Notes: a model not told the origin generated them from the letters alone. Positions 1-47,514 are shown, counted from the first letter of the stretch. The stretch is DNA of 64,000 nt from a virus (IMGVR_UViG_3300048590_000360:4202-68201), one strand, 5' to 3'. Numbers and translations: made by a program.

Positions 1-65
1 CTTTGAGGGAACGTATCTTTCACATTGTTATACGTTGCGTGTTGGTTGTTAATAGTAACTGCCAT
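1..65 (-). CDS. hypothetical protein, 5' end only (gene runs off window start)
   Basis: ATG at 65-63 (MAVTINNQHATYNNVKDTFPQ..), 19 nt downstream of the giant-gene stop, open to position 1. Confidence 0.3.
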   Translation of the reverse strand, partial: MAVTINNQHATYNNVKDTFPQ

Positions 66-84
66 GATGAATTTTTTTACAAAG

Positions 85-3000: not shown

Positions 3001-6000
3001 TACTGATTCCATTTCAGCATTGGTAATCATTCCTTCTTGGCCTGCATTATCTACAAAGAATATTTCATTATCCTTGTCAAACTTTACCTTTGCGCCTTGC
3101 ACCATTGTTGAAATCTTATCAATTAACGGGGCAAATACTTCATTGAATGTCTTTTCATCAAGATATTTAGGATTGATTTTTAGAATATCTCTGAGGATGG
3201 GTTTCTGTTCCGCAAATACTCTGGTTGTCTTACTTCCCATTGCCTTACGGATACCTTTCATCTTCTTCTTTACTTCATTCTTTCTGCGTTGCTTTTCTGC
3301 GGATTCCTTGTTCCTTTCTTTTGTGACTTTGGCGCGTTGGTTCACCATTTTTTTAACAGCACTATTCTTAGATAGATTGTTCCATGTTCCGGATTGAAAT
3401 ACCGTCTTAAATGCTATTTTGAACAATTCGTCTGCTTCTTTTTTAGATAGTCCGTATCTATTCATTACGTCTTTTACGAATTCAGCCTTTGTGGTTTTAT
3501 CGGTGAGGATTTTCGCGCCATAATCCAACATGTCTTGGCGCGTGTTCAAATAAGTTTGGAACCCTTTAGCAGTATCCCTGAACATTTTCCCTACTTGCTT
3601 TTCTTTCCACCCACGTTCTTTAGCTATATGTTTGACGTGGCTTATTGATAATCCATTCTTCCAGAATAACTGAACGGCTTCACCTACTGTCATATCCGTA
3701 TCCATCATCCCCTGAGTAGCAATCATCTTAGCAAGTGAAGGTGTGAACCCGTAATGCAATATTAAACCTTTTACTACAGCATCATATCCATGTCCTTCTT
3801 GTAGTTTAACTTGTGCATTGATTATCGCTTGGTTATATTCCTGTGGAGTAATGGTATCTAATGTAGTGCTTGTCTTTTTGGCTTTTTGTGGGCGTACTTT
3901 AGGTTTCAGTGAATCAAGGTAACTTTGATATACTTCATTTTCGCTCATCTTGTAATGGTGTGGTAACTTACTAAGGTCTCCACCCATTTTTTTTAACCAC
4001 CATTTTCTATCAACAAACCATTCATTGGTGTATTCTCTGGCAACTTGTTCCGGTGTCTTTTCTTTCTTCTTAGCCCACTTGTGACCCTGTGCTTCCATAC
4101 GTTCACGGAACTTTTGTTCACGGACTTTCTGAACAGGGGTGTCTGTTGTAATAATTGTGCCGGATTTAAATGATTTATGAATACCTTTTATTACTGATTC
4201 TATATCATTTGCTTCGTACAGTTTTGTTGTTTTTAATTTTCCCAATAAATTATTGATAAAATCGGCAATCTTTTGTAAAATGTTCATCTTGTCAGGGAAT
4301 TTCCCTGCGACAATTCGCGCAACGCCTTCAGTAAGAAATTCTATATCCCTATCCGTATCATCATACTGTGAAGCAAAATCGTCTAACTCAGCCAATAACT
4401 CAGGATTTGAACTTCCAAGTAATGTCCTTAATTCGGTTGCTAACTTCTTAACCTTGTCTGGGGAACTTAATACGGTATGTATTCCCTCATGTATTAGACT
4501 TGTCAATAAATTAGGATTAGCAGCGTTCATGTTTACGTGAATCTCATCCCCATCGGCAAAGGCATATACTACTCCATCTTTTTCAATCGCTTTCCCTGCC
4601 CTTTTTTCAAACTGTTTATTGAAATTATCCGCGTCATAATGGAATGTCATAGAACTTCTTAGGGACTGAAATATTCTTGGCAACCACTTAGCCATTCTCC
4701 TTGTAGATTGTGAAGATGTTTTATCCTTCATCATACTTGCAGCAATCTGCCGAATCTCTTTTGTGTTCTTTGCTGTTACAGTTTTCGGTCGTTGGGGTAG
4801 TAATGGTAACTCAGAAAAATCTACAGATTCTTCAACCTCTGTTTCAGTAATTGGTTCGGCTTCGTTTTTTCGTTTTAATACTTCTTTCTGATAGTCTGTC
4901 TGCATAGATTCATCTTCGTAAATACCTATACTATCGTCCCATATCCTTTGTAGTTCTTTTCTCCCTTCTTCTGTACCAACCTTATCTTTAATCATATCAA
5001 GGACTTCAATGGGCGTTTCCATCCAATCACGTTCTACTGCATATTTATTTTCATCATTAATATATTCAAACAATCCTTCAAAGTCAATTACACCTGTGTT
5101 ATCGTCAGTCCATTTCCTTAAAGTATTAATAACTTTATCGTCTTTTTTTGATGCTTTATCACTTGAATCTCTTGCCTTTTCTACAACTTTCTGTGCCGTT
5201 TCCCTATTTAAAGATTTCCCAGTAAGGTTTTCATACATGGTAGCAACTGCCCTTGCTTCTTTACTTACCTTTTGATATTTAGCTTTATATGGATTGGAAA
5301 GTATATAGTCAATAATATCCTGTTCTGATACATATTGTCCTGCCCTTTCGCTAATTTCTTGCGCAATAACATCAAGGGGCATCCCATCTCTACCTTTTCT
5401 TGTTAACCAAAATCTACCAATGGCTTGCCCTATAAGATTCTTATCCCCATAATGTATAAAATCTTGTCTCCTGATTGAGTATTCTCTGATTAATTCACCA
5501 ATATAATCTTCACCGGAAGTGTGTTCAATGTATAATTCTGCAAGTCTCTCAGGCGTGGGTGTTTCCCCTTGACGTAATCCAGTGGCAGTATCTAATTCAT
5601 TAGGGTCAATTTCTTTTCCCGTCTCTATAAGTCTCATAGATTCGTCAAAGAAAAATTCTTTCCCTTCTTCAGTTTCAATCATAGTCAGAATATCATCCTT
5701 ATCTTCTTGACTTAATTCAGTATCTGTTTCTAACCTTTCTTTCACCCAATCATAATCTACGCCGTCTAATCCCATTGAATCACGAATGAACTTCTCTTTA
5801 GGCGTAAATTCCTTTGGTTTAACTTCTTCTTCAACTTGTTCTTCTTTTTTCGGTTCACTGTCATCTTTTTTTCCTTCCGGTTTTTCTATTACACCTGAGT
5901 ATTGGTTAGTACTGTAGTCCTTAAATACCTGTGCGGCACTCTTACCATTACGGAAAATATCTTCTAAGGCTTGTTGTGACTGATTTAATCGCTTCGTTAA

Positions 6001-20336: not shown

Positions 20337-20356
20337 GGTTTCTTGGTTTTTAAAGG

Positions 20357-20434
20357 TTAATTAAATTTATAAACATAACATTTCATCTCCATCGCCAGCA
20401 TCCAGCGGACACCGTAAATCTTTTTTGGTTTCAT
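20357..20434 (-). CDS. possible 25-aa micro-ORF
   Basis: Shares the 17-nt start context TAGAAACCATGAAACCA with radC (19567-19583 vs 20426-20442). Otherwise unsupported. Confidence 0.2.
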   Translation of the reverse strand: MKPKKIYGVRWMLAMEMKCYVYKFN

Positions 20435-20656
20435 GGTTTCTATTTTTTAGTTTTGGTTTATAGTACATATACGCCATCATCTCATAAATAGTTTCAAAAA
20501 AAATAAAAAAAACTTAAAAAACTTTCAGGTATCTAAAACTCAAGCGCAAAAACTTGGCGCGTGAACAACAAATAACATTACACACCAGGTAAAAAACAAA
20601 ACAGTAAGACAAAACACATATAAATATATCTTTCCTTCAGTTCCTTTCACCAGGTC

Positions 20657-20740
20657 ATTTCCTTCGGTGTCCTTCCTTCGGTGTCCTTCCTTCGGTGTCC
20701 TTCCTTCGGTGTCCTTCCTTCGGTGTCCTTCCTTCGGTGC
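20657..20740. repeat. 14-bp tandem repeat CCTTCCTTCGGTGT x6 (iteron-like)
   Basis: Six head-to-tail copies; the first and last are slightly degenerate. Lies in ORF-free DNA. Confidence 0.9.
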
Positions 20741-20821
20741 ATCAGCGCATTAGCTAATATTACAACAAAGTAGAACGAGTCCGCGGAACGTAGATCGTAA
20801 CGGGGTTAAACCTTTTGTTGT

Positions 20822-20829
20822 TATCTTTG
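20822..20829 (+). promoter_or_regulatory. plus-strand -7 box TATCTTTG with no ORF downstream
   Basis: Matches TAnnTTTG. No ORF above 30 aa follows for about 900 nt on the plus strand. Confidence 0.3.
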
Positions 20830-21741
20830 TACCTGGCACCGGCTAAATGAATCCTTCAACGTGCTGACACTAAAGTACTCATAACATGCATTATGTTAAA
20901 TAGGGATTTTTGTAACCGATTAAAAACTAACGTGTTATATTATTGTCTATACAAGAGTTGTTTTATAACGGGTGAAAAGAAAATATAAAACATTGATTTT
21001 CAAGGATGAACAAAGCAGTGTTATTTTGTCGTGAAAATTCGTTAAAAGGTGGTGTAAAACGGGGAAAGGTGCGGACGGCTGCAATACGTTAAATGTACTG
21101 CGTTATCGTTGCGCGGTTGGTGTCGGGATATAGGTTGAATGGTTTGGCTGTGTTAAAACCGATTTAAATCATATTTTAACGTATCCTTGCTGCGGTGTAT
21201 CTTCTCGGAATGTACCCCATGCCCCTCTGAATCCCGTTTCCTTTTTCGCACATCCCCCCTTCAATGCCATATAACCCCTTGACTGGACCGTTACGTATGA
21301 GATTCAATGGGGTTATTGAGGGATACTGCAGGATGGTGTTTGAAGGAATTGGTATTGGTGAAAGGGGCTGTGTGGAATTGTGATTTGCTTGATGGGTATG
21401 TGGGGTGTCACTGTATTATTGAATTATTTGTTTAAGTGACATTGCATAACTATGTAATTTTCTGGGGTGTTATGTGTTATTACTTAAAGTAATTGTTTAA
21501 TAGTTGTGTGTGTTGATTGGTTGTTTGGTGGTAGGCTTCCAACGGTTTGTTGGTGTTTTATTGGGGGCTGATTGACACTAAGTATGTGATTTTGAGGTAT
21601 GGTTATTTTTTGTGATTTGGTGATAGGATTCCAATAATGACGTGGTATTGAATATTTTTTTTGTTTAATATATACTATGGTGAGTTCTGCTACAAGCTAC
21701 GACACATTTCATTAGTGGGTTCATTCGTAAGCTGTTGTTGA

Positions 21742-21789
21742 TTATAATAGATATTTCAGTTTTTGTACAACGATTTTGTAAATGTCCAT
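21742..21789 (-). pseudogene. 5' stub of the tyrosine recombinase gene (14 identical codons, then L-stop)
   Basis: MDIYKIVVQKLKYL is identical at DNA level to codons 1-14 of 43262..44053. Confidence 0.85.
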
Positions 21790-21834
21790 GCTGTAACCCC
21801 TTATTTTATTGGTATTGTTGTTATATGGTAGTTA
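21748..21834. repeat. 87-bp perfect direct repeat, copy 1 (attI-like junction of array A)
   Basis: Base-for-base identical to 44012..44098. Ends in GTTA of GTTATCGG. Confidence 0.95.
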
Positions 21835-21843
21835 TCGGCAACC

Positions 21844-22206
21844 CTAAGCGGACACCACAAACAATTCAGTTCCATATAGAGAATAGAAAATATTTTGTAG
21901 TTCGTGGACATATTGTAAGTCTGTTAAAACTAATTGACAAACAAAATTGCCTTGAATAAATCTAAATTTATCATCAGCAGTTGATATACCTACATTGTTG
22001 TCTTTGTTGTAAAATTTATCTTGTATTTTGCTGTTTGTAAATCCAAAATCGGTGAGCCATTTATCAGTTAGTTTTACAGGATAAAATGGTTTGTCTAATT
22101 CATTTTGTAAGTACATTGCGAATAAAGAGCCATCCAACTTTATAATATCTTCGTTAAAAGAAACATAGTTTCCTACTCTTATTTGTGTTGCGTTTAAATA
22201 TTTCAT
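21844..22206 (-). CDS. cassette ORF A1, hypothetical
   Basis: 120-aa ORF. TAG stop 13 nt from the junction core. Confidence 0.6.
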   Translation of the reverse strand: MKYLNATQIRVGNYVSFNEDIIKLDGSLFAMYLQNELDKPFYPVKLTDKWLTDFGFTNSKIQDKFYNKDNNVGISTADDKFRFIQGNFVCQLVLTDLQYVHELQNIFYSLYGTELFVVSA

Positions 22207-22255
22207 TTTTTATTTGTTTAAATTGTTAATAATCATTCCGAAAGAAGGGCAGCCG

Positions 22256-22341
22256 ATAACAGCGTATAAAGTAAACCGCCAATCCCCACCCACGTAGCCA
22301 ACGCAATTGTCGGCTTCCCTTATACGCAAAAGCGTTAGCGG
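22256..22341 (+). repeat. attC-like imperfect inverted repeat
   Basis: ATAAC-A-GCGTATAA..TTATACGC-AAAAGC-GTTAGCGG. Confidence 0.6.
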
Positions 22342-22349
22342 AAATGATT

Positions 22350-22592
22350 TTACCCACCCATATCTACAATAGTAGGTTTAATCGGTTCACCGCCAACCGA
22401 AGCGAATAGAGATAGTTTTTTACTTGGTTTACCATCTTCAACCATCCAAGCAATTGAACCGCAACAAGGCGTTGAACCTGTCCAGTTTTTTAATTGAGTT
22501 TTACATACGTTACATTCCACCCAAAAATCACTATCCGCTAACACATTATTTGCGTCAGTGGGGGTGTTGTTTTTCAAATCGTCGTTTTGCAT
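22350..22592 (-). CDS. cassette ORF A2, Cys-rich (zinc-ribbon-like)
   Basis: 80 aa with CNVCK..CCGS. Confidence 0.55.
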   Translation of the reverse strand: MQNDDLKNNTPTDANNVLADSDFWVECNVCKTQLKNWTGSTPCCGSIAWMVEDGKPSKKLSLFASVGGEPIKPTIVDMGG

Positions 22593-22616
22593 ATTATTAA
22601 AATTTAGTTTTTCAAA

Positions 22617-22670
22617 TTAACTGTGGTGGTGTAATGCCCCACCGAACGCAAATAATCGGCACGTTAGCAG
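22617..22670 (+). repeat. attC-like element (variant class)
   Basis: TTAAC-T-GTGGTGG..CCCCACC-GAACGCAAA..CAC-GTTAGCAG. The A3 stop TAA lies inside the core. Confidence 0.5.
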
Positions 22671-22906
22671 TCAGTTTGCCCCAAATCACCGTAAGGCTTT
22701 TGAAGTGCTTTACTACTAATAGCTATTTCTCCGTTAGGAAGTTCATTGCAATGGCAAACCGAACTGCTAACAGGCGGTTGGCGCAATACTTGTTTCATCG
22801 CTTCGATTAAAGTGTGGTACATTTCAGCATCGCTTACTTTGTCATTCTCGCTTTTCGGGTATCTATTGTCTATTACCCATTGTGCTATTTCTTGTATCGT
22901 TTTCAT
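22664..22906 (-). CDS. cassette ORF A3, hypothetical
   Basis: 80-aa ORF. Confidence 0.55.
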   Translation of the reverse strand: MKTIQEIAQWVIDNRYPKSENDKVSDAEMYHTLIEAMKQVLRQPPVSSSVCHCNELPNGEIAISSKALQKPYGDLGQTDC

Positions 22907-22946
22907 ATCAAAATTTTGTTTTAATTATTCGTACTGCGCCAACCGC

Positions 22947-22959
22947 CAAACCGTTATAA
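22947..22959 (+). repeat. hairpin-less boundary AAACC-GTTATAAC
   Basis: Core only, with the conserved 5-nt spacer. Confidence 0.35.
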
Positions 22960-22970
22960 CCAATAGGGGT

Positions 22971-23168
22971 TCAGTCCTTCGATTTAACATTTCGGTTGGC
23001 GGTTTTCTTATTTTTTTGCACACGCTCTTTGGTTTTTTCAAAACCATTAGATTTTGATTCTCGTTCCAAAATATCCTGTGCCAAGTTTTTAAAATCCGTG
23101 TTCTCATCAATGGCTCTCTTGCTCAATGATTTTACACATTCATCTGATAAATCAAGTAGTTTTTTCAT
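22971..23168 (-). CDS. cassette ORF A4, ribbon-helix-helix-like
   Basis: LDLSDECVKSLSKRAIDENTDFKNLAQDILE fits an RHH strand-helix-helix pattern. Confidence 0.45.
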   Translation of the reverse strand: MKKLLDLSDECVKSLSKRAIDENTDFKNLAQDILERESKSNGFEKTKERVQKNKKTANRNVKSKD

Positions 23169-23604
23169 ATCCTTTATTTAGTATTTTTCTACAACTTTCC
23201 GCGTCCTTTCCGTTTGGTTGGTGTTTTAGTTTCCACAAAGAACTACTTGCGTAATGTTTTGCCAAACTTTCGCACTTTTCAAATGGAACAATAGTATAGA
23301 TATACGAAGTAATCTCTATACTGCTTTCGGTATTACCGCCAAACATAGCTTCGCTTTCTTCAACACAACAAGATAAAACTGGTTCACTTTCATTATCTTC
23401 AAATTTTATCACTGAAAGTTCTTTAATTACATCACTTATTGTAGTAGATTTTAATTGTACATTCTTTTCTTTTTTATCAAACCAATGAATGTAATTACGA
23501 TGTAGTGTAGTAAAATCACGTTTTTTCAAAAGCTCAATAGCTTCATTCCTACTTTTAGTAGTTGATTTTAGGTAATGCTGATATACTATTTCTTCTTGTG
23601 TCAT
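23152..23604 (-). CDS. cassette ORF A5, hypothetical
   Basis: 150-aa ORF overlapping A4 by 17 nt. Confidence 0.55.
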   Translation of the reverse strand: MTQEEIVYQHYLKSTTKSRNEAIELLKKRDFTTLHRNYIHWFDKKEKNVQLKSTTISDVIKELSVIKFEDNESEPVLSCCVEESEAMFGGNTESSIEITSYIYTIVPFEKCESLAKHYASSSLWKLKHQPNGKDAESCRKILNKGYEKTT

Positions 23605-23615
23605 AATCGTTATTT

Positions 23616-23906
23616 TTAAAGGGTTTTAAAGTAGTTAAGTAATTGATTAAAATACTTCCCGTAATACTCAATAGCATAGCCATTCATATAAGCAGGTTTT
23701 ACACTTTCTCTTTGTGAGGCAACCACATTAATTCCTAAAGTTTTTGCTGCAAAATCAACAAAGTTTTCAAGTTTGGTGTCGAGCCATTTAATATCACAAT
23801 CCCTAAATTCTCCTTTATTTAATTGGTTTATTATTTTAGTAATCGGGTCTATTAAAGAAACTTCGATAATAAACTGGTCAATTGCTGTGTTGTTTGTTGC
23901 TTTCAT
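23616..23906 (-). CDS. cassette ORF A6, hypothetical
   Basis: 96-aa ORF behind the -7 box at 23931. Confidence 0.55.
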   Translation of the reverse strand: MKATNNTAIDQFIIEVSLIDPITKIINQLNKGEFRDCDIKWLDTKLENFVDFAAKTLGINVVASQRESVKPAYMNGYAIEYYGKYFNQLLNYFKTL

Positions 23907-23930
23907 TTTGTTTCGTTTTTAATTCTGATA

Positions 23931-23938
23931 CAAATATA
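23931..23938 (-). promoter_or_regulatory. -7 box TATATTTG
   Basis: 24 nt before the ATG at 23906; TTTGAAAC lies upstream. Confidence 0.4.
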
Positions 23939-24091
23939 TACCATATATACGATATATACAAGTAAAAGTTTCAAATATTTTAAAACTAACTGATTTTCAA
24001 AGAGAATAATTTTTAAATCCCTCCCTAAAAAAATAAGAAAACTGCTGTTTCTGCTCCGAATTTGGCTTTGTGCTAAACAATCCCTACTGGT

Positions 24092-24146
24092 TATAACAGC
24101 ACATTGGCGGCATTAAAACGACCGCCAATCTGCATCACGTTGTATG
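24092..24146 (+). repeat. attC-like imperfect inverted repeat
   Basis: TATAAC-A-GCACATTGGCGG-cattaaaacga-CCGCCAATCTGC-ATCAC-GTTGTATG. Confidence 0.6.
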
Positions 24147-24489
24147 CAATTATGGCGCAAAAGACCAGGTAAATAGCCAAATATTTTTAGTAAATAGTGA
24201 GTTTAGGATTAGAAAATGACTTAATTTTTGTCAAGCCTTGCAAAGTAGATTTGCTGAAAAGTATTTTCAAAGCGAATTACGCTAAAAGGCTTGCAAAGGT
24301 ATTAGAAAAAAAAGACAAAGTCAAATTTTTATTCTAATACGATCATAAACTGCTATTTATTAAAGAGATGGCTTGGTTTGTAAAAGACTAATCTTATCCC
24401 TTTGGGGCATAAGACCAATATTTTTCAATCATTTAACTAGGTTTTTTGCGGCATAACTGGGACTGTTTTCATAACTTAGCCGAGTTAGA

Positions 24490-24572
24490 ATAACAGCACA
24501 CAACAACAGGTTTGTTCAATGCCTGCCGCCGGCGCAACACAGGCACTGCACAAACCTGCTATACGTTAGGTG
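24490..24572 (+). repeat. attC-like imperfect inverted repeat
   Basis: ATAAC-A-..CAGGTTTGT..ACAAACCTGC-TATAC-GTTAGGTG, with an inner TGCCTG/CAGGCA stem. Confidence 0.55.
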
Positions 24573-24612
24573 CAATAAAAAATAAATTTCCCACCGCACC
24601 AAACTAACAACA

Positions 24613-24879
24613 TTAATCCTTCTTTTTAGAGTATTGAAAAACCAATTGGTTGGCAATGTGGTTAAACTCTAAATTGTTTTTGTCATCGCCTGTAATCTTA
24701 TTGAAAAGATGCGTAGGCATAATGTTTGCCAACGCGTGGAAAAAATGCGTAAGGTTATCGCCTTCTTGTAATTCTTGTTGGTCAATGTGAAAATCACTTT
24801 CGCTATCTTCATCAAAGAGTTCCGCAATTTTTCCACTTAACATTGCCGCATAATGTAAATGTTTTTCGGTCTGTGCCAT
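24613..24879 (-). CDS. cassette ORF A7, hypothetical
   Basis: 88-aa acidic ORF. Confidence 0.55.
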   Translation of the reverse strand: MAQTEKHLHYAAMLSGKIAELFDEDSESDFHIDQQELQEGDNLTHFFHALANIMPTHLFNKITGDDKNNLEFNHIANQLVFQYSKKKD

Positions 24880-24928
24880 AATTGAAATTTGTTTTAAAAG
24901 CCCACGCTAAATTTATTTTTTACAGACA

Positions 24929-25027
24929 CCTAACAGCAGGTAGGCAAAATGCCGCTATGAGCCTGAGTGCTTTGATATTTACATTTGTGGTAAGCGTCAC
25001 TATCGCCTACCTGCAAACCGTTAGCGG
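24929..25027 (+). repeat. attC-like imperfect inverted repeat
   Basis: (A)CCTAAC-A-GCAGGTAGGC..59 nt..GCCTACCTGC-AAACC-GTTAGCGG. Confidence 0.65.
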
Positions 25028-25033
25028 AAAATG

Positions 25034-25369
25034 CTACATCCACTCATCCAACGGAACATTTTTAGTTTTAAATTTTTTGCCTTGAACTGTTAGCACGTAG
25101 TCAAAATTTGCTCTTTGCCAATTACTTTGGTGTATCAACCCCATTCTAACCAATCGAAACAAAATAGACGAATTAAATGTGAACTCACCTTTTGCAGAAC
25201 AACAAGTAACTGTTGATGTACAAGATTGTGTTATCAATTGCCATCCATTTTGAAGACAAAAAACAATCATATTTTGTTTTGGAGTTAGTTTTAATTTAAC
25301 CGCATCATCCGCTAACACGTGTTTTGCGTCAGGCGGGGTTTCGTGGTTAATTGCAGTTTGTGTTTTCAT
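25034..25369 (-). CDS. cassette ORF A8, hypothetical
   Basis: 111-aa ORF. Confidence 0.55.
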   Translation of the reverse strand: MKTQTAINHETPPDAKHVLADDAVKLKLTPKQNMIVFCLQNGWQLITQSCTSTVTCCSAKGEFTFNSSILFRLVRMGLIHQSNWQRANFDYVLTVQGKKFKTKNVPLDEWM

Positions 25370-25397
25370 AATTTAATTTTGTTTAAGTTGAAAGTTT

Positions 25398-25443
25398 GCG
25401 GTTTTCAAACCCGCCCGAACGCAAAGCACCTTAACGTTGTAGG
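25398..25443 (+). repeat. attC-like element (variant class)
   Basis: GCGGTTT-tc-AAACCCGC then CCGAACGCAAAGCACCTTAAC-GTTGTAGG. Confidence 0.45.
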
Positions 25444-25454
25444 CAATTGCCTTG

Positions 25455-25688
25455 CTATAAAAGCGTATTGCCACATTTTCCGCAAAAGTCTTGAACTTTA
25501 CTGTTTACCCTGTTATTTTCGCAATCGCAAGGCAACTGTTCGCTTCGCCCTACAACAGGGGCTATATGTAATACTTGGATCATTGCTTCGTAAATAACTT
25601 CAAGTTGATTTGAGTTAAATTCTTGCTCAACGCTTGTAAAGTTTCCAAATGTATTTAATGCTTCTAATAATATTTTTTCTTTATCCAT
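25455..25688 (-). CDS. cassette ORF A9, hypothetical (C-terminal CxC..CxxC)
   Basis: 77-aa ORF. Confidence 0.55.
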   Translation of the reverse strand: MDKEKILLEALNTFGNFTSVEQEFNSNQLEVIYEAMIQVLHIAPVVGRSEQLPCDCENNRVNSKVQDFCGKCGNTLL

Positions 25689-25733
25689 TTCTATTAAGTT
25701 TTATCGTTAATAAATCGTACTACATATAGCCCC

Positions 25734-25746
25734 AAACCGTTAGCTG
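25734..25746 (+). repeat. hairpin-less boundary AAACC-GTTAGCTG
   Basis: The A10 stop TAA lies inside the core. Confidence 0.35.
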
Positions 25747-26003
25747 CAAGCTGGCAGACTAATCCACGCAATAACGCTTCCGTTTGTATGTTGTGGTCGC
25801 ATATCATTAACCCAAACAATTACCCGATTATCTTCAAGCCTTAAATGACATACATCCATTTTACCATAGTCGGTTAATATTAGCACTGGTTTACCAAATT
25901 CGGGTAATTGTTTTTCTACTGGAATCCAGCCAGCAGCTAACACAGTATTGCCGACAATTGCGGGTTCTGTGGTAGGTTCAACTTTTTGTTTTTTATTGTT
26001 CAT
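25740..26003 (-). CDS. cassette ORF A10, DUF551-like
   Basis: WIPVEKQLP ... VIAWISLP pattern. Confidence 0.5.
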   Translation of the reverse strand: MNNKKQKVEPTTEPAIVGNTVLAAGWIPVEKQLPEFGKPVLILTDYGKMDVCHLRLEDNRVIVWVNDMRPQHTNGSVIAWISLPACS

Positions 26004-26036
26004 TTGTGCAAATTTTGAAGTTTTTTAATTCTAATT

Positions 26037-26069
26037 CCGCAACTGCGGCAATACTCGGAACGTTAGCAC
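26037..26069 (+). repeat. attC-like element (variant class)
   Basis: CCGCA-ac-TGCGG hairpin, then ..CGGAAC-GTTAGCAC. Confidence 0.45.
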
Positions 26070-26074
26070 CAATA

Positions 26075-26308
26075 CTACGAGTGTGCTGCAAAAACCTGAT
26101 TATCCCTTAATCGTATTTGTTCTCTTATCTTTTCGGCTAATTGTTCTACTTCGTCAGAATAAGAACATATAACAGTTCCGTCCTCTTTTTTTAAGGCTAT
26201 AGGCATTGCGTTTGCGTATAAGTCAAATAGTGCCTTAAATAGTTCTTTTCTGTGGCTATCATTCAAAATAGCTTCTCTTTGTTTTTGGTAATATTTTTGG
26301 TCTTTCAT
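26075..26308 (-). CDS. cassette ORF A11, hypothetical
   Basis: 77-aa ORF. Confidence 0.55.
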   Translation of the reverse strand: MKDQKYYQKQREAILNDSHRKELFKALFDLYANAMPIALKKEDGTVICSYSDEVEQLAEKIREQIRLRDNQVFAAHS

Positions 26309-26344
26309 TCTATTTATATTTTGTTGTTAATAATCCGTACTGGT

Positions 26345-26408
26345 GCTAACAGCAAATAAGCAAAACTCCGCTATCGCTACGCTTCGCCTATTTGCAAACC
26401 GTTAGCGG
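26345..26408 (+). repeat. attC-like imperfect inverted repeat (type example)
   Basis: GCTAAC-A-GCAAATAAGC-24 nt-GCCTATTTGC-AAACC-GTTAGCGG. The A12 stop TAA lies inside the core. Confidence 0.7.
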
Positions 26409-26719
26409 TCATTGCCGCCAAGCCCAAGTCCCTTAATTATCCTTTCCATAAAGTCGCCACTTTTTTTCACATCGCAAGTTTCGTTAAACCATTTTTCGTC
26501 CTCTTCATTTTCAGGAAAAACAATGTTGCACCTCATAGCAGTTTCCCTTAGAAGCGGCAACGAACCGCTAACATCGGGTTGGGCTAAATTTTTATTGGCT
26601 ACGAGTTGCGCGTATTCGGAAAGGATAATTGATACTTTCCCTTTCGTGTAGAACTCTTCCCCTTCATCATTAGTATAGTCTGGTGTCCACATTTTCAAAA
26701 CTTCCATTTCTCTTGTCAT
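26402..26719 (-). CDS. cassette ORF A12, hypothetical
   Basis: 105-aa acidic ORF. Confidence 0.55.
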   Translation of the reverse strand: MTREMEVLKMWTPDYTNDEGEEFYTKGKVSIILSEYAQLVANKNLAQPDVSGSLPLLRETAMRCNIVFPENEEDEKWFNETCDVKKSGDFMERIIKGLGLGGNDR

Positions 26720-26777
26720 GCTATTTATATTTAGTCGTTAATAATCCGCCAATAAAAACTTCGCCAACCCGTCCACC

Positions 26778-26827
26778 GTTATAGCACATTAAAACGATGC
26801 TATAACAGCGCATAAGAGAAGTTAAGG
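26778..26827 (+). repeat. core hairpin GTTATAGCA-11 nt-TGCTATAAC plus left arm of a 20-bp inverted repeat
   Basis: The left arm GCGCATAAGAGAAGTTAAGG pairs with 27111..27130. Confidence 0.65.
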
Positions 26828-27085
26828 CTTAGATAGTGCTTCGAGCAAAGATTCTGCATGAAGAACAGCCAACTCACTAATACCACTTGGTGAGAATGTC
26901 ATACTTCCTCCTTGTGTCATTCCTCCGTTACAATTTGCTAATAATCCTTGCATCGCTAATCCTGCAAAATACTCCTTCTTAGTTAAACCATATTGGGTAA
27001 AACTTCCATTAGGATCAAGCATAGAATCTATGTATTCTTTACCTTTAATTCTAGCATTCGTTTGCTGTTCTGTTTCCTTTTCCAT
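26822..27085 (-). CDS. cassette ORF A13, hypothetical
   Basis: 87-aa ORF lying wholly between the two arms of the 20-bp inverted repeat. Confidence 0.55.
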   Translation of the reverse strand: MEKETEQQTNARIKGKEYIDSMLDPNGSFTQYGLTKKEYFAGLAMQGLLANCNGGMTQGGSMTFSPSGISELAVLHAESLLEALSKP

Positions 27086-27110
27086 AATCTAATTTTTTTA
27101 ATTTGTTTCG

Positions 27111-27143
27111 CCTTAACTTCTCCTATGCGCCTACCGTTAGCGG
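27111..27143 (+). repeat. right arm of 20-bp inverted repeat + CTACC-GTTAGCGG
   Basis: CCTTAACTTCTCCTATGCGC, 19/20 complementary to 26808..26827. Confidence 0.65.
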
Positions 27144-43261: not shown

Positions 43262-44053
43262 TTAGATTGGTAAATTCACTTTTGAAAGCAACTGATTTGA
43301 AACGTGCGTGTATATTTCCGTGGTTTTTATATTTGAGTGTCCTGCAATCTTTTGAATAATCCTTGTGTCTGTACCTGATTCAAGCATAGCGGTAAATGAT
43401 GAATGCCTGAGAAGGTGGAAATGATAATCCTTGCCGATGTATTTTTTGACAATTTGGTTGCAACTTGCAGATGAATATTGATTACTGAATTGCCCGTTAA
43501 AAAGGTATTCTGTTGGTTTATATTCTTTGTAGTATTCTCTTAGCGTGGTGAGTATTGTTTGGCTTAGTGGCACGATTCTATCCTTTCTACCTTTGGCGTT
43601 TTTGATGTAAATTATCATTCTACTGGAATCAATGTCGGTTATCTTTAGGTTGATTATTTCTGAAACTCTAAGTCCTACACTAAATGCCAATGATATAATT
43701 GCTTTATGCTTTAAGTTTTCGATGTTATTGATAGACTTAATAAGGTGTTCTCTATCAATTACTCTTGGTAGTTTCTTTTCGGAACGGGGTCTGTTAAAAT
43801 GAACCTTGTCGTATTTTTTGTTTAATCCGTATTTGTATAAGAATCTTATTGCGTTAATAATTTGATTCTGTTGTGATACTGATTTGAACGGATAATTGTC
43901 TAAATACTGCTGAAACTCTTTTGCGGAAACTCTTGATATATGTACTTTACTTTTTGATAGGTATTCGTCAATATAATATAAGTAAACTTTTTGTGTGTTT
44001 TCTGAATAATTTAGATATTTCAGTTTTTGTACAACGATTTTGTAAATGTCCAT
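43262..44053 (-). CDS. tyrosine site-specific recombinase (XerC/D-sized)
   Basis: GLRVSE (Arg), KGRKDR (Lys), HLLRHS (HxxR), GHSNIKTTEIYTHV (His, Tyr). N-terminal SAM-like core-binding domain. 263 aa. Confidence 0.9.
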   Translation of the reverse strand: MDIYKIVVQKLKYLNYSENTQKVYLYYIDEYLSKSKVHISRVSAKEFQQYLDNYPFKSVSQQNQIINAIRFLYKYGLNKKYDKVHFNRPRSEKKLPRVIDREHLIKSINNIENLKHKAIISLAFSVGLRVSEIINLKITDIDSSRMIIYIKNAKGRKDRIVPLSQTILTTLREYYKEYKPTEYLFNGQFSNQYSSASCNQIVKKYIGKDYHFHLLRHSSFTAMLESGTDTRIIQKIAGHSNIKTTEIYTHVSNQLLSKVNLPI

Positions 44054-44098
44054 GCTGTAACCCCTTATTTTATTGGTATTGTTGTTATATGGTAGTTA
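44012..44098. repeat. 87-bp perfect direct repeat, copy 2 (recombinase start + 45 bp upstream; attI-like junction of array B)
   Basis: Identical to 21748..21834. Ends in GTTA of GTTAGGTG, which matches GTTRRRY. Confidence 0.95.
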
Positions 44099-44107
44099 GG
44101 TGCAATG

Positions 44108-44284
44108 CTAAACGACATACACCAACTCAATCTGAAATTTACCATTTTCTCGGTCAATAAATCTTTCTGCATCTTCAACTGTATCAAAGTAGTCAGCAAG
44201 GTATGCTTCTTTACTCCATCCGTAGGCTTCACCACAATAATAAGTTTGAGCCTCAAAATCTTTTACTACATATTTCTTTTCCAT
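44108..44284 (-). CDS. cassette ORF B1, hypothetical
   Basis: ATG at 44284 (MEKKYVVKDF..). The longer track form reads into the hairpin. Confidence 0.5.
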   Translation of the reverse strand: MEKKYVVKDFEAQTYYCGEAYGWSKEAYLADYFDTVEDAERFIDRENGKFQIELVYVV

Positions 44285-44313
44285 TTTTATTTGAATTTGT
44301 GAAAAGCACTGCA

Positions 44314-44397
44314 CCTAACAGCGGTTTTGTGCAAGTTGCCCAACCGGCTCAATGCCCACGCTCCGCAGCCTGACACAAAGCCGCAAAACGTTGGCAG
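44314..44397 (+). repeat. attC-like imperfect inverted repeat
   Basis: (A)CCTAAC-A-GCGGTTTTGTG..42 nt..CACAAAGCCGC-AAAAC-GTTGGCAG. Confidence 0.65.
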
Positions 44398-44402
44398 TAA
44401 TG

Positions 44403-45002
44403 CTACGAGAACACCGACCAACTACCATCTTTCTTATTTATTTTCATTACGCCTTTCTTTGACAAATCTTTATCGTATGGATTTTCAAGAAACAAAAACT
44501 CTGTACTTTCCATTGATTTTAAAGAGTTACAATAAAATTCGCCTGTTTCAATGTTGTAGTAATTGCTATCAACTGAATAAATGCAACTACCCTTTTTTAT
44601 GTAAGGGCTTTTAAATTGGTCAAATTCTTTTTTCTCAACTCCGTTTTTATCAATTATGCACCAGCGACCTTCTAAATGTTTTCTTTGTAATTCAAGTTCT
44701 TTTCGACTTTTATTTGGATAGCATTTTTTAATAAAATCATAATCATAAATTGCTTCTACATATTTAAGAAGCATAAAATAATCTTGTTTTATATCACCCC
44801 CAAATCCACCAACACGATAAAGCGATTTGCTTATTAATTCACCATTTTTTGTAAGGCAAACAAAATCATTACTATTATTATTCCACTCATTCAAATAATC
44901 TTGATTAACCTGAATAGGGGATAACTGCAAAGCACTACTGCCAACATCTGCTTTATGCAAGTGGGGCTGAACTGCTAAATTGAACATTTGTAATTCTATC
45001 AT
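44403..45002 (-). CDS. cassette ORF B2, hypothetical
   Basis: 199-aa ORF. Confidence 0.6.
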   Translation of the reverse strand: MIELQMFNLAVQPHLHKADVGSSALQLSPIQVNQDYLNEWNNNSNDFVCLTKNGELISKSLYRVGGFGGDIKQDYFMLLKYVEAIYDYDFIKKCYPNKSRKELELQRKHLEGRWCIIDKNGVEKKEFDQFKSPYIKKGSCIYSVDSNYYNIETGEFYCNSLKSMESTEFLFLENPYDKDLSKKGVMKINKKDGSWSVFS

Positions 45003-45038
45003 CTTTTGTACTTTATTTAAACATTAGTTTTTCAAATT

Positions 45039-45071
45039 CCCCACCTGACATAAAGCAGTGGGCGTTATGCT
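45039..45071 (+). repeat. attC-like element (variant class)
   Basis: CCCAC..GTGGG hairpin then C-GTTATGCT. The B3 stop TAA lies inside the core. Confidence 0.45.
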
Positions 45072-45271
45072 CCATTGCTACGGAAGTACTCAGAATTAGC
45101 ATTTGAGATAACATTTTTATTCTTTTCTTCCTTCGCTTTGAAATAAGAAACAAGAATACTTTCAACCGTGTTATTAAAACTTGGTCTGTTTGTTTCTTCC
45201 CGTTCTTTTTCTATTGCTTCAACTAACCAATCGTTTTTGTCAGTTAGTTTTAATGATATTCTCTTACTCAT
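45065..45271 (-). CDS. cassette ORF B3, ribbon-helix-helix protein
   Basis: MSKRISLKLTDKNDWLVEAIEKE.. has an N-terminal beta-strand plus two helices. Paralog of 47065..47250. Confidence 0.5.
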   Translation of the reverse strand: MSKRISLKLTDKNDWLVEAIEKEREETNRPSFNNTVESILVSYFKAKEEKNKNVISNANSEYFRSNGA

Positions 45272-45272
45272 A

Positions 45273-45572
45273 TTACCACCAAATTCTTAATCCAATACAC
45301 CAATTTTCTTCTGCATCCTTATATGAATACATATTAGATAACAAACCAAGTTCTTCTATTTTAACTTGTGCTTTTTCTAAAGAACGCCTCAATAAACCAT
45401 CCATATTTGGTGCGTTACCAATATGCAATTCATTTTTACCTTCTTTAGCAGCATCAACCAATCTTTTCTCTAAATTAATTAATTTGCTGTTAGCCATTTC
45501 TTCAATAGCTTGTTCAACAGTCTGCTTTGTGTTTTTCGCAGTAATTTCTTTAAGTTTATCTGTTGTAATCAT
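45273..45572 (-). CDS. cassette ORF B4, hypothetical (upstream partner of RHH)
   Basis: 99-aa ORF, 1 nt from B3, behind the -7 box at 45601. Confidence 0.55.
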   Translation of the reverse strand: MITTDKLKEITAKNTKQTVEQAIEEMANSKLINLEKRLVDAAKEGKNELHIGNAPNMDGLLRRSLEKAQVKIEELGLLSNMYSYKDAEENWCIGLRIWW

Positions 45573-45600
45573 AATTATCTTGTTTTATTAATTTATACGT

Positions 45601-45608
45601 CAAAGGTA
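45601..45608 (-). promoter_or_regulatory. -7 box TACCTTTG
   Basis: 28 nt before the ATG at 45572; TTTGAAAC lies upstream. Confidence 0.45.
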
Positions 45609-45742
45609 ATACTTTTGTTTCAAATAACCTAATCTTTTTTCAATTATTTTTTAAAGCGTTGATAATCAGCCACCACACAAAAGAATAAAAATGTTTGTAG
45701 TGCTTCGATTGAAAGAATGTACTAAATTGACCGCAACGAGAG

Positions 45743-45838
45743 CATAACACGTGCTATAAGCAAGTTTGCCAATAACATTTGTGCTAAATTTGAACATTTC
45801 TGCAAGGCAAACCTGCTCATAGCACCATACGTTGTGCG
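45743..45838 (+). repeat. attC-like imperfect inverted repeat (20-bp stem)
   Basis: CATAAC-AC-GTGCTATAAGCAAGTTTGCC..35 nt..GGCAAACCTGCTCATAGCAC-CATAC-GTTGTGCG. Confidence 0.65.
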
Positions 45839-45841
45839 TAA

Positions 45842-46057
45842 TTAAAGTATCTCTACCAATTTACCACTTTCCAATATTTTGGTTAGGCAATTGCCACACC
45901 TATTTTGTACTGCCGATTCTCCAATAACTTGAAACCTAATCAAGTCATTTAATTTATGATATTCGCCACATCCTAAGCAATTATAACTACGCACAACATT
46001 ATGTATAGCACATTGCTTTTCTACCTTTTTGCTAAATAATTTCTTAATCCAGTTCAT
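45842..46057 (-). CDS. cassette ORF B5, zinc-ribbon-like
   Basis: CLGCG..CGNC pairs. Confidence 0.5.
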   Translation of the reverse strand: MNWIKKLFSKKVEKQCAIHNVVRSYNCLGCGEYHKLNDLIRFQVIGESAVQNRCGNCLTKILESGKLVEIL

Positions 46058-46081
46058 ATTGTTTTTAATTTAGGTTAGTTG

Positions 46082-46128
46082 TGGCAACGTGCCATACACT
46101 CGTCCGTTAGCCGTAATGCCGTTAGACA
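46082..46128 (+). repeat. attC-like element (variant) with two adjacent cores
   Basis: TGGCA-acg-TGCCA, ..CGTCC-GTTAGCCGTAATGCC-GTTAGACA. Confidence 0.45.
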
Positions 46129-46448
46129 TCATCATCACCTTTGACAAGTTCCAACTGACCGACATAGAAATCGCCACAATCTTTTTTATATGCAATGTTT
46201 TTTTGCTTAAATGTTTCTTCTAAATCAGCTTGACATAAGCAATAATCAAGTTCAAGCGTATTGTAATAGTCCTCTTTTATTGGCAAAAAACCAAAGTGAG
46301 TTTCAAATTCTCGTGGCGTTCCTATTTCTACTTCGCCTCTATTTATTACTACGATATGGCACATACGGCTAACAGCGTGTTTATGCAAGCGGGCGGACAG
46401 CTTGCGGTTAATATTTAAGTTCGTGCTATGCCCGCCTGACATAAACAC
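46122..46448 (-). CDS. cassette ORF B6, hypothetical
   Basis: The longest ORF reads through the hairpin at 46368..46463. The internal ATG at 46364 (MCHIVVINRG.., 80 aa) is the more likely start. Confidence 0.45.
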   Translation of the reverse strand: MFMSGGHSTNLNINRKLSARLHKHAVSRMCHIVVINRGEVEIGTPREFETHFGFLPIKEDYYNTLELDYCLCQADLEETFKQKNIAYKKDCGDFYVGQLELVKGDDDV

Positions 46449-46463
46449 GCAAAACGTTAGGCG
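46368..46463 (+). repeat. attC-like imperfect inverted repeat
   Basis: GCTAAC-A-GCGTGTTTATG-caa-GCGGGC..GCCCGC-ctga-CATAAACACGC-AAAAC-GTTAGGCG (perfect 11-bp and 6-bp stems). Confidence 0.7.
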
Positions 46464-46468
46464 TAATG

Positions 46469-46690
46469 CTAATCAACCGAAATTAATTTAGCATAGACCA
46501 TTTTTGTATCGAAATGTTCCTCCAAAACTTTAGTTATTTCTTCTATTGAAATATCATCAGCATTTTTAGGGTTAAATCCATATTCCCATTTACAATATTC
46601 ATCATCTATTGTAATGATAAAAGCACTACGCCTAACAGCACCTAAATCGCTATTGGCTGTTTTGTGGTTAATTGATTTTTCGTGTTCCAT
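46469..46690 (-). CDS. cassette ORF B7, hypothetical
   Basis: 73-aa ORF. Confidence 0.55.
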   Translation of the reverse strand: MEHEKSINHKTANSDLGAVRRSAFIITIDDEYCKWEYGFNPKNADDISIEEITKVLEEHFDTKMVYAKLISVD

Positions 46691-46731
46691 TGTTACTTTA
46701 TTTTAAGTTGATAATTCTTTGTTTTAAATCG

Positions 46732-46763
46732 CCAACAGCGTTTAGCTGCGGAACCGTTATAAA
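46732..46763 (+). repeat. minimal/degenerate attC-like element
   Basis: CCAAC-A-GCG..GC-GGAACC-GTTATAAA. Confidence 0.35.
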
Positions 46764-46771
46764 ACAGTTTG

Positions 46772-46993
46772 CTATTCAAATTTATCACTCCAACATTTCA
46801 TACTGCAACACGGGGCATACTTGCTATTCATCGGCTTACCGCAATCGCAAACCGATTTTATAACATGGGCTAAACCCAATGCTTGCATTATCGTTTCATA
46901 ATAAAATCCCAAATTACATTCTTCATTTTGTACTCCTTTTTCATATACTTTAAACAGTAGTTTCTCTATTTGCTTTCTTTTTTGCTTTGCCAT
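46772..46993 (-). CDS. cassette ORF B8, Cys-rich
   Basis: 73 aa, CDCG..CCSMKC. Confidence 0.55.
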   Translation of the reverse strand: MAKQKRKQIEKLLFKVYEKGVQNEECNLGFYYETIMQALGLAHVIKSVCDCGKPMNSKYAPCCSMKCWSDKFE

Positions 46994-47037
46994 TTCAATT
47001 AAATTTTGTTGTTAATAGTCGCACTGTGTTTAGCCCC

Positions 47038-47050
47038 GTTCCGTTATGCT
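47038..47050 (+). repeat. hairpin-less boundary GTTCC-GTTATGCT
   Basis: Start of the duplicated RHH unit. Confidence 0.4.
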
Positions 47051-47064
47051 CCATTGCTACGGAA

Positions 47065-47250
47065 CTACTCCGAATTAGCATTTGTGGTAACATTTTTATT
47101 CTTTTCTTCCTTCGCTTTAAAATAAGAAACAAGAATACTTTCAACAGTATTGTTAAAACTCGGTCTATTGGTTTGCTCCTGTTCTTTATTTATCGCTTCA
47201 ACTAACCAATCGTTTTTGTCGGTTAGTTTTAATGATATTCTTTTACTCAT
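47065..47250 (-). CDS. cassette ORF B9, ribbon-helix-helix protein (paralog of B3)
   Basis: About 90% DNA identity by eye to 45064..45271, from the GTTATGC core to the start codon. Confidence 0.5.
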   Translation of the reverse strand: MSKRISLKLTDKNDWLVEAINKEQEQTNRPSFNNTVESILVSYFKAKEEKNKNVTTNANSE

Positions 47251-47449
47251 TTGTTTTCACCTTAATTTCCCACCATTCGTAAAAATCCATTCCTGATTTA
47301 CCTAAACTTTCACCAACAATTGCTGGTTCATCTGTCATTCCTTCCATGTAACCATCATTATATGCTTCATCAGCAATATTTTTAATGAAATCAGTAGCAT
47401 GTTGTTCGCTCAAACCGAGTTTTACAAGTAATTCAATTCTATTTTTCAT
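47243..47449 (-). CDS. cassette ORF B10, hypothetical (upstream partner of RHH)
   Basis: 68-aa acidic ORF overlapping B9 by 8 nt. Confidence 0.5.
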   Translation of the reverse strand: MKNRIELLVKLGLSEQHATDFIKNIADEAYNDGYMEGMTDEPAIVGESLGKSGMDFYEWWEIKVKTNE

Positions 47450-47514
47450 ATCTTTAAATGTTGCTTATCATAAAGATTGAAACGCAATGAAAATACAAAA
47501 GGTTACAACCAAAA

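Follow-up and report, generated by a model that had tools for sequence, protein, structure and literature searches.

A probable phage-borne gene-cassette array of integron-like working beside a Xer-like tyrosine recombinase

The DNA analysed here, IMGVR_UViG_3300048590_000360:4202-68201 (the window, 64 kb in full), encoded a large terminase, a portal, and several virion proteins, which bore out the proposal of an initial annotation, made from the sequence alone, that the element in question sits on a phage genome. An intact gene for a tyrosine recombinase of 263 amino acids (aa) lay on the minus strand, and to its right were ten small open reading frames (ORFs) on the same strand. As that annotation had also stated, all of them read toward the recombinase, with the hairpin at the 5' end of the ORF. 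An attI-like junction separated the recombinase gene from these ORFs, and short cores, most of them preceded by an imperfect hairpin, marked the boundaries farther right (array B, Table 1). A second and larger array of the same polarity, array A, was found elsewhere in the window. Based on the evidence below, we consider it probable that recombinase, junction, and hairpins form a gene-cassette platform, carried by the phage and working in the manner of an integron.

The recombinase retained every catalytic residue named in the initial annotation (R, K, HxxR, H, and Y), found here as R129, K154/157, H213-x-x-R216, H239, and Y248, and its Pfam domains were Phage_int_SAM_4 and Phage_integrase. 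No curated family cut-off in NCBIfam was reached. XerA gave the top score (169 bits, cut-off 220), and the integron integrase model TIGR02249 gave 150 bits, split over two stretches (cut-off 265); XerC and XerD gave 134 and 133 bits (cut-offs about 330), and PRK15417 gave 97 against a cut-off of 435. The best matches were archaeal XerA proteins, namely NF040815 and Pyrococcus XerA 4A8E, the latter being the best solved relative. When aligned with VchIntIA (2A3V), the protein covered IntI residues 16-185 and 260-313, and 26 of its residues stood opposite the 74 IntI residues (186-259) of the stretch that holds the IntI-specific insertion. The earlier description of a protein of XerC/D size, unlike IntI, was therefore correct, and the missing insertion together with scores below every cut-off identified a simple Xer/IntI-like recombinase without the hallmark domain of integrons.

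The junction lay directly upstream of the recombinase gene. The region 44054-44110 had no fold, and the junction showed no evident two-arm palindrome of the dif or lox kind. In eleven related contigs (L001-L011) and in the Polaribacter phage Freya, a core that follows an ATATA-rich box was located 45-110 nucleotides (nt) upstream of the recombinase start. A perfect 87-nt direct repeat, made up of the junction and the initial 42 nt of the recombinase gene, had one copy before each array. Identity between the two copies stopped exactly after GTTA, and both were flanked by unique sequence.

All nine cores of array B listed initially (44095, 44390, 45064, 45831, 46106, 46121, 46456, 46756, and 47043) were present at these coordinates, as were the boxes ACCTAAC (44313), GTTAGGT (44095), and GTTAGGC (46456), which fit the integron consensus. 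The claim of a GTTRG core at every boundary held for the positions but not for the motif: cores 45064, 46756, and 47043 read GTTAT, core 45831 read GTTGT, and the motif common to all was C-G^TTR (^ marks the crossover). Similarly, a hairpin with a verified 3' box preceded five of the eight non-junction cores, which agreed with the claim for most cores but did not extend it to every boundary. The elements were built as YTAAC, 1-2 nt, stem, loop, stem', 4-5 nt, and C-GTTR. Folding of array B yielded four strong hairpins, three of them with z-scores of -2.6 to -4.1. An element at 46861-47046, whose loop spans the N-terminal half of ORF 46772-46993, had been missed in the earlier reading.

Table 1. 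Positions of the recombinase gene, junction, hairpin elements, and ORFs in the window, and of array differences among Freya isolates. Window positions are counted from its first letter; Freya positions are Freya_10 array coordinates.
Feature	Position	Strand	Remarks
Tyrosine recombinase, 263 aa	43262-44053	-	Simple Xer/IntI-like type without IntI insertion; Pfam PF13495 and PF00589
87-nt perfect direct repeat, copy B	44012-44098	.	First 42 nt of recombinase gene plus junction
attI-like junction	44054-44098	.	Crossover core GTTA 44095-44098; sense strand ..CTAAC^TACCATATAACAAC..
Array B cassette ORFs	44108-44290, 44403-45002, 45065-45271, 45273-45572, 45842-46057	-	ORF calls
Array B cassette ORFs, continued	46122-46364, 46469-46690, 46772-46993, 47065-47250, 47243-47449	-	ORF calls
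Hairpin E1	44316-44393	+	CCTAAC-A-stem..stem'-AAAAC-GTTGG; fold and structural scan
Hairpin E2, ~125-nt class	44942-45067	+	Inverted repeat I24; z -2.9/-3.0; scan
Hairpin E4	45745-45834	+	CATAAC-AC-stem..stem'-CATAC-GTTGT; inverted repeat I2, 20 nt, 90%; z -2.6/-4.1; scan
Two tandem core-only sites (CGTTAGCC, CGTTAGAC)	46105-46127	+	No partner arm detectable
Hairpin E3, best-formed copy	46370-46459	+	CTAAC-A-13 bp stem..-AAAAC-GTTAG; z -4.0 both strands; scan
Degenerate/collapsed site	46724-46762	+	GCCAAC-A-..-AACC-GTTAT; no long stem
Hairpin, ~190-nt class	46861-47046	+	Structural scan; left arm within ORF 46772-46993
Freya_1	1-733		Kept
Freya_2	1-1575		Kept
Freya_5	1-2477		Kept
Freya_9	1-5368		Kept
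Freya_8	1576-2477		Internal loss (902 bp)
Freya_6	after 2477		Alternative 472-bp cassette, only in Freya_6 and Freya_7
87-nt perfect direct repeat, copy A	21748-21834	.	100% identical to copy B; heads array A
Array A (larger)	21748-27142	+	attI remnant, then about 12 hairpin elements of array B polarity
Array A scan elements 1-5	22539-22666, 22768-22956, 24094-24142, 24501-24568, 24931-25023	+	Structural scan
Array A scan elements 6-9	25313-25439, 25553-25742, 25938-26065, 26803-27139	+	Structural scan
Array A weaker elements	near 22262-22340, 26345-26397, 26568-26783	+	By eye

The hairpins were far more frequent than expected by chance. A structural scan of the window, in which a match required only [TC]AACA and CGTT[AG] with a stem of 10 bp or more placed at fixed offsets, returned 14 elements, all on the plus strand, nine in 22.5-27.1 kb and five in 44.3-47.0 kb. 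When the window was shuffled 20 times, 19 runs gave no match and one gave a single match. Across the family, 112 unique elements fell into size classes of about 48, 87-90, 121-128, and 190-200 nt. When 38 elements of the ~125-nt class were aligned by MAFFT without regard to structure, the TAAC(G)/(T)GTTA box was invariant, a second stem of 11-12 bp was present, and 12 of 17 stem pairs were changed on both sides. Since these 38 elements had been chosen by stem length, a one-sided test free of that bias was added: 27.6% of the 283 sense-strand TAACG sites in the window and 11 related loci had a stem of 10 bp or longer placed at the correct offset, compared to 0.4% with the downstream sequence shuffled and 0.7% for antisense sites. 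The sense strand folded better in 97 of the 112 elements (mean 2.5 kcal/mol), but control segments were also biased (1.06 kcal/mol), and the folding preference was therefore not used to choose the reactive strand.

Further evidence came from cultured phages. Polaribacter phages Freya_1 to Freya_10 (records of 43,978-48,920 bp) carry an 'integrase' 39% identical to the window recombinase, which was described as an integrase for a temperate lifestyle with no mention of cassettes (PMC8776804). The region upstream of this gene was assembled for seven isolates (Freya_1, 2, 5, 6, 8, 9, and 10). Their backbones were 99.9-100% identical, and they differed only in the cassette content directly upstream of the integrase, where the arrays formed a nested series with one internal deletion and one replaced cassette. 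The cassettes fully explained the differences in genome length (842, 1744, 2216, 4040, 4635, and 4942 bp). In gene sense, each of the six structural differences broke immediately behind ..[AC]AAC^ (^GTT on the complementary strand), and the internal breakpoints (733, 1575, 2477, and 5368) coincided with hairpin elements with stems of 16-22 bp. The Freya junction (..GCTAAC^ACCCCTATAAC..) and these hairpins had little in common beyond the AAC core. Compared to Freya_10, phage Danklef_1 had a backbone of 98-99.8% identity and a different array, and the two phages had in common a two-ORF cassette of 1.17 kb, reaching from AAC to AAC, with 99.6% identity and different neighbours. Danklef_1 and Danklef_5 (L121/L122) had the same array, with a length difference of 991 bp elsewhere, and the integrase of both was an annotated remnant of 132 nt; as an anecdote, an integrase remnant beside an unchanged array fits a cassette recombinase. 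The cargo of the Danklef array included an HNH endonuclease and an adenine methylase.

The same layout was found in more distant relatives. Recombinase relatives with 28-79% identity over the best-matching segment were located on 25 viral contigs, and the order of recombinase, junction, and cassettes read initially from the window was conserved in phage contigs with recombinases of about 30-70% identity. It was clearest in five contigs (L001, L002, L003, L006, and L011), which had 10-20 elements each on the recombinase-sense strand, all upstream of the gene, and almost none downstream or on the other strand. Hairpins were 80-95% identical between contigs, compared to about 70% for the recombinase genes, and occurred in different order. 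Contigs L004 and L005 were 84% identical across the recombinase gene, and their similarity ended at TAAC^, the junction core. The initial annotation had set gain, loss, or shuffling of whole units at G^TTA as a test; such changes were found in the Freya isolates, between Freya and Danklef, and between L004 and L005, and inside the window the 87-nt repeat ended, and a pair of paralogous cassettes began, at the core. Among 80 bacterial loci or loci of metagenome-assembled genomes with relatives of 35-61% identity, an upstream array was seen only in L041, a contig of 5.8 kb, and the idea of matching arrays in host chromosomes was dropped. Exact-pattern scans for the window junction in viral and metagenome collections gave no match. 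The sole other contig with an identical recombinase (L040) was 100% identical over 13.6 kb and ended inside the array. A search with the whole region against phage records returned two short matches only, one of them to the 462-kb uncultured phage LR756500, with no hairpin elements around it, and a search of the window against Rfam found no known RNA family at gathering thresholds or at E<=10.

At the level of genome comparison, these breakpoints showed that exchange takes place at AAC^ or ^GTT, that exchange between junction and hairpin adds or removes cassettes next to the recombinase gene, that exchange between two hairpins excises cassettes internally, and that partner sites have little in common beyond the 3-nt core. 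We infer that the adjacent Xer-like recombinase is the catalyst. In the model we propose, the recombinase gene would be preceded by a duplex attI-like junction, read in gene sense as ..YTAAC^N5-ATATA.., with the cassettes upstream of it. Each cassette, in gene sense, would consist of a 5-nt spacer, left arm, loop, right arm, 1-2 nt, GTTR, and the ORF body with its stop, and end in ..YAAC^. In the folded site YAAC would pair with GTTR, and the arms would pair across an asymmetric bubble of 5 nt versus 1-2 nt, so that the stem may imitate a two-arm recombinase core site, as attC does. The duplex junction would be similar to the 5' half of such a hairpin, with AAC, about 5 nt, and an ATATA-rich arm. 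The most economical model appears to be one in which the hairpin takes part as folded single-stranded DNA and the exchange of one strand is followed by replication, as in IntI/attC and XerCD/CTX-phi. Excised cassettes would be circles with one complete hairpin.

The ORFs bear on where a cassette begins and ends. The longer loops held an A-rich translation-start region and the first codons of the ORF. ORFs started inside a hairpin loop at 45002 in array B (the 199-aa ORF, in the loop of E2) and at 22592, 25369, and 26003 in array A, and the left box was embedded in an ORF at 22768, 25553, and 46861. These ORFs are whole only if the crossover is the right-hand G^TT, and a cassette is thus, on the plus strand, TT.., reversed ORF, hairpin, and ..G. 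Two paralogous cassettes of 209 nt (45063-45271 and 47042-47250) were 91% identical, with similarity beginning at the core. Bacteroidetes -33/-7 promoters were considered for the loops and fitted poorly in spacing; we therefore refer to A-rich start regions only. Searches of Pfam and PHROGs with the cassette ORFs gave nothing usable on their function.

Further relationships were observed among the cassettes. The two-gene cassettes 45065-45572 and 47065-47449 had downstream ORFs of 91% identity (MSKRISLKLTDKNDWLVEAI..) and unrelated upstream ORFs. Their similarity ended at the start codon of the common ORF, which suggests a second kind of exchange point within cassettes. Three paralogous cysteine-rich ORFs of ~75 aa occurred across both arrays (22664-22906, 25455-25688, and 46772-46993), with the left hairpin box at an equal place in the coding sequence (..Q.L....V..). 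In ORFs starting in loops of the ~125-nt class, the N-terminal peptide, about 25 aa long, was loosely conserved (..PQLNIGAVS, ..EQLLISAVM), because the right stem arm is translated.

Other explanations were weighed against an integron-like platform. The recombinase could primarily be a Cre/Xer-type multimer resolvase or a lysogeny integrase, with the junction as its own site and the cassettes as selfish hitchhikers that insert there in succession, in the manner of IMEX such as CTX-phi at dif; the chemistry would be the same, and the array would be parasitic instead of phage-owned. Such an origin would suit a protein of Xer size with archaeal XerA as best matches (4A8E, NF040815), the reading of the Freya gene as a temperate-lifestyle integrase (PMC8776804), and the many Bacteroidota chromosomes that have relatives of 37-45% identity and no arrays. 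We regard it as unlikely, in that the layout of array and recombinase was kept across deep recombinase divergence, a second array with an attI remnant was present in the same genome, replication or transfer functions of their own were not found in the cassettes, and the junction bore no clear resemblance to the two-arm palindromes of dif or lox.

Less likely still is that the hairpins are transcription or translation modules resembling the promoter-early stem-loops (PeSL) of T4-type phages, and that the arrays vary by homologous or microhomology recombination in which the recombinase is irrelevant. In favour of it are the conserved A-rich start regions and ORF starts in the loops, the identity of 80-95% between elements at different positions and in different phages, and the enrichment of G.T pairs on the transcribed strand. 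Against it, the sites in events between junction and hairpin had little in common beyond the AAC core, all observed breakpoints fell at one fixed position, and no chimeric hairpins were seen; the strict polarity, the constant position of arrays beside a recombinase gene, and the covariation of stem arms at fixed offsets from the core also argue against it. That the pattern is due to chance, or that two strain variants were wrongly joined in assembly at the 87-nt repeat, deserves hardly any credence: the window is a metagenomic assembly and the second contig ends inside the array, but shuffle controls speak against chance, the system also occurs in finished genomes of cultured phages, and the sequence around both repeat copies is unique.

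Several observations weigh against the integron-like platform. The recombinase is tied to the exchange events by adjacency alone, and it lacks the IntI domain that reads the extrahelical bases of attC. In attC the bubble and the extra bases are on the arm opposite the crossover; here they are on the arm next to it. Three boundaries of array B (46106, 46121, and 46756) are cores without a hairpin, and a relaxed search at these cores revealed no partner arm. Population variants of the window phage were found neither in L040 nor by the exact-pattern scans. The stems bracket translation starts, and they could therefore be kept for a role in RNA; part of the bias toward folding of the sense strand was also present in controls. 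Finally, P12002L_attC1, a member of the hairpin family described here, was the sole site not recombined by IntI1 (PMC9892861).

Array A had no intact recombinase adjoining it and only a 42-nt remnant of the gene. This second attI-bearing fragment lies 22 kb from the recombinase copy. A mini-hairpin of 35 nt (GTTATAGCA-CATTAAAACGA-TGCTATAAC) at 26775-26809 combined the right box of one element with the left box of the next. It occurred twice in L001 (4482-4516 and 7968-8002) with 100% identity, in a contig otherwise ~70% related, and its loop was also found in the 48-nt element 24094-24142 and in P12002L_attC1. Immediately to the left of the attI remnant was a stretch of 1.4 kb (20340-21747) whose main coding (minus) strand held no ORF of 90 aa or longer. 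At 20659-20739 within this stretch, a 14-nt unit (TTCCTTCGGTGTCC) was repeated perfectly in tandem, with 5.8 copies, and the GC skew of the stretch changed locally. The stretch may serve as an origin, in packaging, or in regulation. A single ORF of 2862 aa occupied 85-8673 on the minus strand.

An integron-like platform of this kind likely lets phages of Bacteroidota renew their small accessory genes quickly. Integrons, the textbook system of cassette capture, take their definition from IntI and the special domain of that enzyme. Here integron logic would be carried out by a plain Xer-like recombinase with inverted cassettes in virus genomes, which would show the minimal needs of a cassette platform and bear on the origins of integrons. 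It would also explain the hypervariable regions of small ORFs in many marine flavobacterial phages. The 'integrase' of Forsetiviridae and other such families, taken until now to indicate lysogeny, would become a candidate recombinase of cassettes. A bolder form of this reading, for which we see the case as evenly balanced, is that a separate lineage of Xer-like recombinases, devoid of the IntI domain, operates a genuine integron analogue in tailed phages of Bacteroidota, with folded single-strand hairpins that double as 5' expression modules of the cassettes. If so, capture of the integron type evolved more than once, or the lineage is a surviving stage that preceded IntI, and phages would own a machine for swapping accessory genes, probably for host takeover or anti-defence, within one bloom season. 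The system is directly testable, because cultures exist of the Freya phages as well as of their Polaribacter host, and the variation is already present in these phages.

Among known systems, CTX-phi and IMEX at dif provide a precedent for a Xer-type recombinase without the IntI domain that acts on a folded single-strand hairpin mimicking a duplex core, and successive integrations of IMEX at dif build tandem arrays at one site. In contrast to these, the recombinase here is encoded by the phage, the units are gene cassettes of 0.3-3 kb and not replicons, and the junction is not a dif-like palindrome. A Xer/dif system proper would combine a curated score with a palindromic dif of ~28 bp; XerA, XerC, and XerD all scored below cut-off, and the junction showed no evident palindrome of two arms and did not fold. 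The PeSL mobile regulatory cassettes, found in hyperplastic regions of T4-type phages, consist of small ORFs with stem-loop control elements that are shuffled between related phages, by homologous recombination between the repeats and with no dedicated recombinase. The arrays here fall outside this type, with breakpoints at a fixed 3-nt core and, in some cases, a non-hairpin junction as partner.

Clusters of attC sites without an integrase (CALINs) have been reported in virulent phages, including Polaribacter phage P12002L; no cognate recombinase was found for them, and the sites were taken to have strayed there from integrons of bacteria (Qi et al. 2023, PMC9892861). The P12002L_attC1 site (..GCTAAC-GGCTAC-GGCTAAACGG-TCGTTTTAATG-CCGTTTTAGCC-AT-TGTTAGG..), predicted by HattCI only (PMC9892861), has the build of the 48-nt class described here and its loop TCGTTTTAATG, and P12002S has ~190-nt elements of the same build and no recombinase match. 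Unlike phage CALINs, the arrays here adjoin a dedicated Xer-like recombinase and vary between isolates. The initial remark, made without a search, that no system with this combination was known needs dividing: attC-like sites in flavobacterial phages were already on record (PMC9892861), whereas a full-text literature search found no description of arrays linked to a recombinase in this way. Phage attC clusters without an integrase are the known part, and the linked recombinase system, as far as that search reached, is the new one.

Compared to bacterial and archaeal integrons, the system is integron-like in its working, yet two defining features fail, namely the IntI domain and the orientation of cassettes with its Pc logic. 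The recombinase has no IntI insertion and falls under the curated IntI thresholds. Integron cassettes present the ORF and then attC, point away from intI, and are expressed from Pc; here the ORFs are inverted toward the recombinase with the hairpin at their 5' end, often around the start codon, and expression of the Pc type is not possible. The spacer is asymmetric (5 nt versus 1-2 nt) and on the crossover side, the loops come in discrete size classes of up to about 340 nt, and the host genomes are those of tailed phages of Bacteroidota. The likeness extends to the rest of the design. As in integrons, small cassettes, mostly with cargo of no known function, form an array that follows a junction on the 5' side of a tyrosine recombinase gene. 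The sites are imperfect palindromes in both: their boxes resemble RYYYAAC and GTTRRRY, a second box is paired, the spacer is left unpaired, and the loop varies. The junction has what is expected of an attI, a conserved core at which cassettes are inserted and a crossover of G^TT, as judged by the Freya nested series, the break between L004 and L005 at the core, and the end of the 87-nt repeat at GTTA. Whole cassettes vary between close relatives (Freya_1-Freya_10; Freya versus Danklef), being gained and lost at the junction and excised between two sites, as in integrons.

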